From positions 608,001 through 672,000 of the forward strand of contig CAVQSP010000011.1 in NCBI GenBank assembly GCA_963715985.1: a stretch of 64,000 nt of DNA. Direction: 5' to 3'. A model generated the notes under the pieces. The model was given only the letters and a program-made list of their open reading frames with translations. It was not told the origin of the DNA and did no database searches. The stretch's first letter is position 1, and the number at the start of each line of letters is the position of its first letter. Positions 2,494 to 7,687 of this stretch are shown one piece after another. Both the position numbers and the translations under genes were made by a program. The stretch is from an uncultured Thermoleophilia bacterium. Lineage in GTDB: Bacteria; Actinomycetota; Thermoleophilia; UBA2241.

Positions 2494-3606
<1,113 letters not shown>

Positions 3607-3806
3607 GCGCCCTCCGCCGCCCTTCGCTACGAGGTTCGCCTGATCGTGTCGATGGCGCGCCGGCGCCGGCCGGTGCGAAGGGCAGCATGCCCTCCTCCCA
3701 CCAGGGGGCGGCCACAGGGACGCGCCAGAGAACTGCTCCCGATACTAACACCCGGGGCTGCCAGGGGAGGCGCTCGCGCGAGCACTTCGAGTGGGGCCGG
3801 CGGTCA

Positions 3807-3995
3807 GATCTGCGCCACACTCACGCCACCCTCGCGCTCCAGGCCGGCATCCACCCCAAGGTCGTCTCAGAGCGCCTTGGGCACGCCACCGTCTCGATCA
3901 CCCTCGACACCTACTCGCATGCCATCCCGGCGATGCAGGAGGAGGAGGCGGCGCTGATTGCGGGGCTGGTGTTCTCGACGGAACAGGCGAGCTGA
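3807..3995 (+). pseudogene. Tyrosine recombinase C-terminal remnant 2
   Basis: DLRHTHATLALQAGIHPKVVSERLGHATVSITLDTY (LRH, LGH and catalytic Tyr); no N-terminal part upstream. Confidence 0.85.
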
Positions 3996-5302: not shown

Positions 5303-5378
5303 TGGTGCCCCCGGGCTGGATCGAACAGCCGACACCAGGTTTAGGAAACCTGTGCTCTATCCACTGAGCTACGAGGGC
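5303..5378 (-). tRNA. tRNA-Arg (anticodon CCT)
   Basis: Reverse complement GCCCTCGTAGCTCAGTGGATAGAGCACAGGTTTCCTAAACCTGGTGTCGGCTGTTCGATCCAGCCCGGGGGCACCA: cloverleaf, TTCGA T-loop, CCA end. Confidence 0.96.
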
Positions 5379-5543: not shown

Positions 5544-5858
5544 TCATCCGCGACCGTCGATGCGCTCGAGCATCTGCGCTTCGCTCGGGTGGGCGTCGAT
5601 TCCCGCACCGGGGACCAGGTAACGCCGTCAGCCCATCGACCCGAGCGGGATCTCCGTGTCGGGCTCGAGGTCGCGCCCGTCGATCAGGATCGTCGGCGAG
5701 CCGCGGAAGCCGCTGGCGACCGCAGTCGCCTCGTCTTCGATGACCACGTCGCTGACGCCGACGTCGTCCCGGGCGCCGGCGATCCCGGAGGCGATGGCGA
5801 GGGCGGCGGCCCCGCCGCCACAGCCGGGGACGTGGAGTACGGTGATCGTGTGAGGCAT
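5544..5858 (-). CDS. Thioredoxin-like DF family (seleno)protein with in-frame UGA at 5628-5630
   Basis: GGAGG RBS; HVPGC and GFRGSPTILIDGRD motifs; after GSMG-TGA the frame continues RRYLVPGAGIDAHPSEAQMLERIDGRG; TGA sits at the family GxxCRxY Cys. Confidence 0.75.
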
Positions 5859-5976
5859 CTGCTCTCCTCCTGCCGACGCGGGACCCGCGCTTCGTCTGAC
5901 GGGAGGATACCGCCCCGGGCACCCGTTCACGCATCTCGGCCGACGCTCACGCCCCGCCTGGGACGGGGCCGGAGTC

Positions 5977-6270
5977 CTACCGCCTGCGGCTTGCGAGCGC
6001 CACGACGTTGTCGCGGCGCGGCTGAGCGTCCTCGAAGATCTGCTCCTCGGCGCACTCCAATGCGGCCCTCGTGACCTCGTCGAGGCCGGCCTTGGCCTTC
6101 GCCCGCGCGGCGGTGGTGAGGCGCACGTAGCGGCGCAGGGTGGTCGCCGGGCCGGAGTGGCCTAGCCACTCCTGCGCCTGCTTCACGCCGTACTCCTCGC
6201 AAACCGAGGTCCCGAACGAGTCGCGCAGGCCGTGGATCGGCAGGTGCGGGTCGATCCTCTGGCGCGCGAC
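5977..6270 (-). pseudogene. Tyrosine recombinase C-terminal remnant 3 (distinct from remnants 1 and 2)
   Basis: PHLPIHGLRDSFGTSVCEEYGVKQAQEWLGHSGPATTLRRY: HxLR, LGH and Tyr. Confidence 0.7.
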
Positions 6271-6410: not shown

Positions 6411-6641
6411 ATGCGCACCACCGATCTCGAGATCGCCAAGCTCTCCCTCGCTGAGCGCATCCAGCTCGCCGAGGACCTCTGGGACAGCGTCGCCGCCGAG
6501 ACCGGTGGGTTGCCGCTCACCGAGGCGCAGACGACGGAGCTCGACCACCGCCTCGCCCAGCTCGCCCGCGATCCTGAGGCCGGCGACCCCTGGGAGGTCG
6601 TGCGCGGGCGCATCCAGGAGCGCCTCGACAAGGCCGGATGA
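6411..6641 (+). CDS. Addiction module antitoxin
   Basis: LSLAERIQLAEDLWDSV..ELDHRL..PWEVV pattern; ATGA overlap with the toxin. Confidence 0.85.
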   Translation: MRTTDLEIAKLSLAERIQLAEDLWDSVAAETGGLPLTEAQTTELDHRLAQLARDPEAGDPWEVVRGRIQERLDKAG

Positions 6642-6940
6642 CCCTGCGCCTCGTCGTCCGCGCGGCCGCCGAGGCGGACGTCCTCGAAGCGGCACTCTGG
6701 TACGAACAGCGCTCCCCAGGTCTCGGCACAGAGTTCCTGCGCGCCGTCGACGTCACCCTCGCCGAGATCGCGCGCATGCCCGAACGCTTCCCGCTCGTCT
6801 ACTGCGAGTCGCGCCGTGCGCTGCTGCGCCGCTTCCCGTATGCCGTCTTCTTCGTCGCCGCTCCCGATCTGGTCAGCGTGGTCGCCTTCATGCACGCGCG
6901 CCGCGACCCACGCCGCTGGGAGGAGCGCGTCGGTGGATGA
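6638..6940 (+). CDS. RelE/ParE family toxin
   Basis: EAALWYEQRSPGLGTEFL, RRALLRRFPYAVFF, HARRDP. Confidence 0.88.
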   Translation: MTLRLVVRAAAEADVLEAALWYEQRSPGLGTEFLRAVDVTLAEIARMPERFPLVYCESRRALLRRFPYAVFFVAAPDLVSVVAFMHARRDPRRWEERVGG

Positions 6941-7076: not shown

Positions 7077-7102
7077 TCGGATAGCCTCAGGAGGTGAACC
7101 CG

Positions 7103-7351
7103 ATGATTACCAGAATCCAGAAGTGGGGCAACAGCCAAGGTCTTCGTGTGAGCAAGGAGCTGCTTGCCGATGCCGAGATCGGCGTCGGCGATGCCGTCGA
7201 CGTGGCCGTGCGTGACGGCGCTCTTGTCGTGACGCCGGTCCGTCGCGTACGTGGCGCGCTCGACCTCGCGCAGCTCGTCGCTTCCATTCCCAAGGGCTAC
7301 GAGCCCGGCGAGCTCGACTGGGGACAGCCTGCCGGCCGAGAGGTCTGGTAG
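7103..7351 (+). CDS. mazE: AbrB/MazE family antitoxin
   Basis: IQKWGNSQGLRV, ELDWGQPAGREVW. Confidence 0.9.
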   Translation: MITRIQKWGNSQGLRVSKELLADAEIGVGDAVDVAVRDGALVVTPVRRVRGALDLAQLVASIPKGYEPGELDWGQPAGREVW

Positions 7352-7687
7352 GTGGCGGCCTACGTTCCCCGCAGGGGGGACTTCGTCGCTCTGACCTTCG
7401 ATCCCCAGTCGGGTCACGAGCAGCGTGGGCGCCGACCGGCACTGGTGGTCAGCAACGACCTCTTCAACAAGCACACGGGGTTGTGCATCGCCTGCCCGGT
7501 GACCAATGCCCGGCGCGACTACCCATTCCATGTCTCGGTTCCCGAAGGCTGCGAGGTGACCGGCGTGGTCATGGTCGAGCAGGTCAAGTCGATCGACTTT
7601 CGCGCCCGCAGCGTGAAGCGCATCGCACCGGCTCCGGAGTCGGTTCTGCAGGAGGCGCTGTCGCTGCTCGACGCATGTATCTATTGA
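7352..7687 (+). CDS. mazF: PemK/MazF family toxin
   Basis: YVPRRGD, FDPQSGHEQRGRRPALVVS, QVKSIDFRAR. Confidence 0.92.
   Translation: MAAYVPRRGDFVALTFDPQSGHEQRGRRPALVVSNDLFNKHTGLCIACPVTNARRDYPFHVSVPEGCEVTGVVMVEQVKSIDFRARSVKRIAPAPESVLQEALSLLDACIY

Follow-up and report, generated by a model that had tools for sequence, protein, structure and literature searches.

The window, meaning the whole stretch of 64,000 nucleotides analysed here, comes from an uncultured Thermoleophilia bacterium and carries a small gene of the DF-like thioredoxin-fold type (Table 1). The initial annotation gave no strand for it; the gene is encoded on the minus strand. The table-11 open reading frame (ORF) ends at GSMG, ahead of an in-frame TGA, and yields a 76-aa product. 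Translation confirmed that the frame goes on past this TGA, as had been noticed earlier: 27 further codons precede the terminal TGA, giving 104 residues. The terminal TGA was also considered as a further selenocysteine (Sec) codon and rejected, since orthologue ends differ in place and the downstream sequence is unconserved. ORFs on the plus strand or in other frames that overlap the gene were treated as shadow frames; of these the plus-strand frame of 5544-5858 alone was translated. A sigma-70 consensus promoter scan upstream of the gene returned no site. None of the public sequencing runs contains half of the stretch's words, and the RNA run X15 covers the stretch at its tRNA end only.

Table 1. 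The DF-like gene and its associated features, in window coordinates.
Feature	Position	Strand	Basis or remark
DF-like thioredoxin-fold gene, 104 aa	5544..5858	minus	ATG at 5858, terminal TGA 5546-5544; read-through translation
In-frame TGA, codon 77, predicted selenocysteine	5628..5630	minus	column invariant C/U in alignment A1; aligns with Cys of CRxY
Cys13 (TGT), place of the first thioredoxin CxxC Cys; CGGG, second Cys absent	5820..5822	minus	profile alignment to CPHC of PDB 1fo5
Upper stem and GUG apical loop (5608-5606) of predicted SECIS	5598..5616	minus	conserved in orthologues; one mismatch 5613/5601
Full hairpin with the lower stem of the initial annotation	5592..5626	minus	minimum free energy (MFE) structure; lower stem unconserved
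Shine-Dalgarno-like AGGAGG, 7 nt 5′ of ATG	5866..5871	minus	sequence; similar purine run in most orthologues
-10-like hexamer TATC(C/T)T, conserved; putative promoter role	5904..5909	minus	in 6/7 aligned upstream regions

The DF-like gene is solitary, with an integrase-like remnant on one side and tRNA-Arg on the other. No mer or ars genes lie beside it, the neighbours being toxin-antitoxin modules, integrase-like remnants and the tRNA. tRNA-Arg(CCT) (window 5303-5378, minus) is flanked by two short ORFs, 5977-6186 (minus) and 3791-3995 (plus), which by eye resemble tyrosine-integrase C-termini and have no NCBIfam match. A variable insertion site is suggested by contigs of run X2 in which the tRNA end is joined to sequence from about 5990, leaving out the DF gene. 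The tRNA-side position is unconserved, as no tRNA was found near the orthologues, and these share no common neighbourhood; ArsR, ArsP-like or CDF genes occur in about three of eight distinct orthologous neighbourhoods. Farther along come two consecutive toxin-antitoxin pairs: at window 6411-6940 (plus) a TIGR02574 antitoxin whose partner is, by eye, likely of ParE/RelE type, and at window 7094-7687 (plus) a MazE/MazF-like pair. The peptide MQEE(E)AALIA is present in both ORFs 2433-2660 and 3791-3995, and its recurrence suggests that the gene for an RpoD-like sigma factor (2494-3606) is bracketed by repeats of an integrase 3′ end. In genome G015, a cluster 1-7 kb from the orthologue (L176:537-6140) contains an ArsP/SaoE-like permease, an MFS transporter, ArsR, a ferredoxin and a radical SAM gene, together with a weak NF049942 match resembling DUF2703.

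The protein had been presented as a hidden selenoprotein, a description that no longer applies to its family: DF proteins are already catalogued as NCBIfam NF049942. This model, 'DF family (seleno)protein', is the sole NCBIfam match of the window protein (E 4.7e-13, 49.0 bits), with residues 5-94 on profile positions 1-91 of 96, and the full-length match includes both Cys/Sec sites and the GSPT..G.D motif. The initial annotation gave FxGSPTILIDGRD and then GxxCRxY as the family motif; GSPT..G.D and the site-2 (C/U)RxY are common to the DF family. The curated cut-off of 70 bits is not reached, and all seven subfamily members tested score 49-62 bits on NF049942. By its sequence the window protein is thus a divergent relative of the DF family and not a formal NF049942 member. 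Its subfamily forms a clade (support 100/97) on a long branch (1.88) of a poorly resolved 65-row tree from which L053, L058, L133 and L163 were left out. The invariant alignment columns are C13, G53, P55, D63, C/U77, R78 and P91.

A Sec protein implies a host able to insert this residue, and the host genome (88.8% complete, 7.3% contaminated) has the whole set of genes that was anticipated. selD, selA and selB are adjacent on contig C13 and tRNA-Sec lies on the same contig; the profile scores are 526.9 bits for selA, 298.8 for selB, 326.1 for selD and 67.4 for tRNA-Sec, all above the curated cut-offs. Host selD itself has an in-frame TGA. TGA is the usual stop of this genome (1030 of 1325 long coding-like ORFs), and tRNA-Sec is the sole one with a UCA anticodon among 53 host tRNAs. 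Contig C13 also carries tRNA-Pyl (555126-555198), pylS (559328-560053; 316.5 bits, above cut-off) and pylB in two pieces (551949-552972), so that the host genome appears to use both selenocysteine and pyrrolysine.

Conservation around codon 77 gives the second line of evidence. Alignment with Cys homologues places the UGA on the invariant Cys of CRxY, and homology extends beyond it: the NF049942 match spans residues 5-94 with read-through versus 5-68 for the 76-aa product, and the score is 49.0 bits versus 39.2 bits. A search of 41 genomes returned four orthologues with 63-86% identity, all with TGA at codon 77, and four metagenome loci have it as well, one of them (L051) near-identical to L025. 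Altogether, the Sec site is TGA in nine of nine orthologous loci seen as DNA, and never TAA or TAG. In eight orthologue sequences pN/pS is 0.33 over the 23 codons after the UGA versus 0.34 over the 70 codons before it. Of 58 protein database matches, 56 stop one residue short of the UGA (61-100% identity; the window's own protein is among them), the protein end being what was observed for 55 of these homologues and the codon itself not seen; the remaining two are distant Cys proteins. In the wider family, the frame remains open for at least 22 codons past the UGA at 117 of 118 site-2 UGA loci (at least 118 loci), the other one being cut by the locus end. Because the host possesses selA, selB, selD and tRNA-Sec, the TGA is kept in orthologues and the UGA aligns with the invariant CRxY Cys, recoding is supported, and with it the predicted 104-aa Sec protein of the initial annotation. 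The host SelB/tRNA-Sec system very likely inserts selenocysteine at codon 77.

Two other readings of the codon can be considered. The UGA might be a true stop, in which case the 76-aa product would be a fragment, or the gene a pseudogene, within a mobile region; the setting between an integrase remnant and a tRNA is compatible with this, databases contain the 76-aa form only, and the predicted hairpin described below is weak in this copy. Such a reading is nevertheless very improbable: purifying selection is equal on either side of codon 77, a stop would take off the last helix of the predicted fold, and the codon is without exception TGA, in an invariant Cys column. Scarcely credible is an error for TGC/TGT, or a UGA read as Cys or Trp in this host. 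Assembly errors do occur, as the frame breaks elsewhere, such as that in pylB, indicate, but separate assemblies show the same TGA at eight further loci, of which two are near-identical, and it is present in an independent contig identical to 5624-5885 (0 differences, the TGA near that contig's end), with TGA the genome's main stop and no other UCA-anticodon tRNA found.

The hairpin that would direct Sec insertion gives a more divided picture. A SECIS-like stem-loop had been placed directly 3′ of the UGA; it is present and agrees with the bSECIS model, whereas its lower stem is unconserved and its stability does not rise above that of shuffled sequences. According to the constraints quoted in the available text of PMC13188914, a bSECIS element has a loop of 3-9 nt, a stem of at least 4 bp, a G within the first two loop positions, a distance of 16-37 nt from the UGA and an MFE of -7.5 or lower. 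The predicted element, compared with these quoted constraints, has a GUG loop, four contiguous pairs plus three past a mismatch, a spacing of 19 nt and -14.9 kcal/mol, and is the MFE structure over 50 nt. In this 70% G+C DNA, 157 of 200 shuffles fold as well (z = +0.79), and this copy is no better than its synonymous recodings (z +1.29).

Comparison among relatives distinguishes the two parts of the stem. The 8-pair upper stem is 98.4% paired across eight orthologues (window included), and the sole unpaired cell is the window's own 5613/5601, either a genuine change or an error; the other seven are free of mismatch. In the same eight sequences the lower stem GGCGT/ACGCC has 50% of its cells paired, and no compensatory changes were found in the hairpin. 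At family level, codons +3 to +13 of Sec genes are more stable than their synonymous recodings (mean z -1.37, n=131), against +0.06 for the same region of Cys genes (n=30) and -0.22 for upstream control windows. Of the Sec genes, 74 of 131 have a G-led loop at nt 18-26, compared with 5 of 30 Cys genes, kin not being independent in these counts. Host selD and a host DF paralogue have a GUG-containing loop at a similar distance from the UGA.

This paralogue deserves a separate description. It lies at G000:C11:277358-278320 (L217:2859-3821, plus), comprises a DF domain with Cys13 and a UGA at codon 80, and scores 92.8 bits, above the NF049942 cut-off. Joined to this domain in the same frame is a SAM methyltransferase that resembles MduS in its N-terminal part (243.9 bits against a cut-off of 380), and the whole protein has 320 aa. 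The same long open frame past the UGA is seen in genomes G001, G006, G017 and G020.

TGA-bearing DF genes and the Sec machinery were compared across genomes. Such a gene is carried by 16 of 40 relative genomes, one of which (G034) was not parsed for its Sec site, as also were not loci L173, L204 and L205, and selA was found in 14 of the 16. The exceptions are G011, which is 66% complete and in which selB, selD and tRNA-Sec likewise were not found, and G004. The latter is 93% complete and has neither selA nor selB nor selD; its UGA-bearing DF gene (L172:2430-2860, G004:C8) is frameshifted and lies near arsM-like, ArsR and flavin disulfide reductase genes. Either decay after Sec loss or an assembly error could account for this gene. 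A phylum draw of 201 genomes added eight further TGA carriers, seven of them with selB, and six other DF carriers without selB have Cys-only genes. In G170, which is 97% complete, no selB, selD or tRNA-Sec was found, yet an intact DF gene with Sec at the first and Cys at the second site is present (locus L197, G170:C31:70317-70604). This genome counts against a perfect rule linking TGA-bearing DF genes with Sec machinery. The carriers are related and not independent; the counts are therefore given without a statistical test.

The DF family has two positions at which Cys and Sec alternate, and its published description covers one of them. NF049942 takes its name from 'hypothetical protein DF', described in the deep-Sep paper (PMC12013277) from Desulfosediminicola flagellatus IMCC35005. 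As far as the available text of that paper goes, no TGA-containing homologues of this protein are reported; in the sequence as printed, U occupies the N-terminal site and the last residue is the one before the C-terminal site. A 2026 review (PMC13188914, Table 1, in its available part) lists DF = NF049942 with one Sec and no motif. In the genome (NZ_CP050698.1:626011-626690, locus L139), the founder gene has TGA at both sites and goes on for 26 conserved residues past the second. The published founder sequence thus stops at a second UGA, which is the site of the window gene. The DF genes of close relatives with UGA at both sites (L034, L035 and L036) have a predicted hairpin also after each first UGA.

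UGA at the second site is widespread. A motif scan requiring TGA at the C-terminal site detected it in at least 118 genomic stretches, and the phyla among those listed include Desulfobacterota, Chloroflexota, Acidobacteriota, Verrucomicrobiota, Nitrospirota, Actinomycetota and others. At site 1, 89 of these at least 118 stretches have Cys and 25 have TGA; in the other 4 the site could not be read. All four site-1/site-2 states (C/C, U/C, C/U and U/U) were found, the U/C and C/C forms being added by an unbiased phylum draw. Seven U/C genes in this draw led to rejection of a scheme in which Sec belongs primarily to site 2 and appears at site 1 solely alongside it.

The published description of the DF family is incomplete in these respects: its founder carries two in-frame UGAs, and forms with Sec are spread over many phyla and not confined to one organism. 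PMC12013277 and PMC13188914 were the only publications found to treat NF049942/DF, in a search whose scope excluded most subscription journals and bioRxiv supplements. The two-site picture, the uncounted second UGA of the founder and a first functional lead go beyond these two papers. The NCBI curators may know of the second Sec, because the NF049942 profile spans both sites, and may already annotate it (WP_419720682.1). At 90% identity the subfamily of the window protein makes up 56 database clusters, whose stored sequences are truncated at the Sec codon; as they also fall below the NF049942 cut-off, pipelines miss the subfamily. The natural C/C, U/C, C/U and U/U variants on one small scaffold offer a set for asking what selenium contributes at either site of a redox or metal-binding pair.

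A thioredoxin fold is predicted for the protein. The AlphaFold model has a pLDDT of 94.9 and matches thioredoxin folds (VIA Z up to 9.4, rmsd 2.8, 80 aligned); in Foldseek no match was found at E ≤0.001, the rows being at E 0.003 or worse. In the model, as in the thioredoxin fold, helix 1 begins with a Cys and strand 3 is preceded by a conserved Pro. The CxxC/S/T active-site motif is absent from the window protein, which has CGGG at 13-16, and CxxC is not among the common site-1 motifs of the best 150 of 6,128 family clusters. The family profile matches PDB 1fo5 (E 4.3e-8) and 1nho (E 6.6e-6); the matched part comprises its first ~62 positions together with the last helix. These are archaeal thioredoxin/glutaredoxin-like proteins of the Thioredoxin_3 type with which the first Cys and the Pro-Thr motif align; they have CxxC, whereas in the window protein the second Cys is missing and ~20 inserted residues would include Sec77. 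From this match Cys13 would correspond to the first Cys of CxxC, the second Cys being gone and Sec77 placed in the insertion.

Coupling analysis of 301 sequences recovers the contacts of the fold. Weak links connect 70 and 73 to residues 50-52 and residue 80 to 18, and are consistent with an insertion lying beside the Cys13/Pro55 site. Couplings among the invariant residues 13, 55, 63, 77 and 78 were discarded as artefacts of conservation and of the motif filter. The ~20-residue insertion probably puts residue 77 beside Cys13, where it would replace the missing second Cys of CxxC. A pairing of the N-terminal Cys (HVPGC) with Sec, as put forward in the initial annotation, is thus plausible.

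The best overall explanation, to which a probability of roughly 0.55 can be assigned, combines Sec at UGA 77 with a split Cys13/Sec77 pair engaged in metal(loid) or disulfide exchange with partners. Cys13 and Sec77 of the predicted 104-aa thioredoxin-fold protein would form a thiol/selenol pair, and this pair would exchange soft metal(loid)s (mercury, arsenic), or disulfides arising from their handling, with partner proteins. The metal(loid) role, taken by analogy from other DF family members and not from the window locus, stands at even chances. It draws on domain fusions. The family profile finds 6,128 clusters at E ≤0.001; the best 150 include 40 proteins of at least 150 aa, among which MerB is the fusion partner in 10 and MerT in 5 (HMA being also present in 3 of the latter), 19 having no partner. 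One MerC fusion was also found, and a search for longer fusions was weak, with 3 matches of 8000 scored. The MerB/MerT fusions may be read as pointing to mercury/arsenic thiol exchange and provide a testable first function for a family of ~6,000 clusters; the mer fusion proteins are all Cys/Cys and belong to branches other than the window's subfamily. MerB passes Hg(II) on by dithiol exchange. Selenium, according to the available part of bioRxiv 10.1101/2022.07.06.499078, binds mercury very tightly. A split Cys/Sec pair could thus act in metal(loid) thiol exchange.

Genomic context adds a further element. In a count that took in 150 of the 154 neighbours picked at 80 Sec-type loci, made without a background control, 9 of the 80 are flanked by genes of Acr3-type (3), ArsC-type (2), MerR (2), ArsP, CDF, DUF3641 radical SAM or P-type ATPase. 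Small thioredoxins adjoin 4 of the 80, and most neighbours are unrelated.

That last observation also fits a protein in which Sec is inserted and which serves as a general glutaredoxin-like thiol-disulfide oxidoreductase with no special metal link. The thioredoxin fold, as predicted, is in keeping with such a role, as are the archaeal thioredoxins 1fo5 and 1nho as the closest solved relatives by sequence, the stand-alone gene with its own conserved upstream region, and the fusions to Thioredoxin_3 (3) and AhpC/TSA (1) among the 40 long proteins, where ABC-2 (1) and NUDIX (1) also occur as partners. Against it, MerB/MerT fusions make up 15 of the 21 long representatives with a Pfam match in the best 150, and the canonical CxxC is lost. 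The general oxidoreductase thus keeps a sizeable minority share of the probability, and between metal(loid) exchange and general oxidoreductase function as such the odds are about even. A more far-reaching version of the metal(loid) reading can be offered only speculatively and is rather doubtful: DF would be a widespread, mostly misannotated two-site selenoprotein family with a split Cys/Sec clamp (C/C, U/C, C/U, U/U) in place of the CxxC of its thioredoxin fold, serving as a dedicated cytoplasmic mercury/arsenic shuttle that receives the metal from MerB/MerT-type partners, of which the window subfamily would be an obligately Sec-containing, stand-alone and mobile form.

Several known systems can be set beside this protein. 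DUF2703 (PF10865) and ArsD are likewise thioredoxin-fold proteins of arsenic clusters. A DUF2703 gene lies within an ars cluster in Rhodococcus, according to the available text of PMC6514093, and 8 of 23 aligned family members match DUF2703 weakly; the window protein itself has no Pfam match, DUF2703 included, and differs from it in lacking CxxC. ArsD is among the Foldseek rows of the window model (TM ~0.45-0.47, E ~0.01), no closer than ordinary thioredoxins. SaoT of the SAO system, as presented in the available part of bioRxiv 10.1101/2022.07.06.499078, is also a small MJ0307-related thioredoxin-like selenoprotein with alternative Sec sites and has been proposed to handle heavy-metal compounds. 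In SaoT, however, the Sec lies inside the CxxC motif (UxxC, CxUC) and the gene belongs to a conserved operon; the window protein has no match to NF040730, the SaoT model. With the DF family (NF049942) the window protein shares the same Cys/Sec site 1, the GSPT..G.D motif and the site-2 (C/U)RxY, and with the founder genome of D. flagellatus the TGA at site 2. The printed founder has its Sec at site 1, whereas the window protein has Cys at site 1 and its predicted Sec at site 2.
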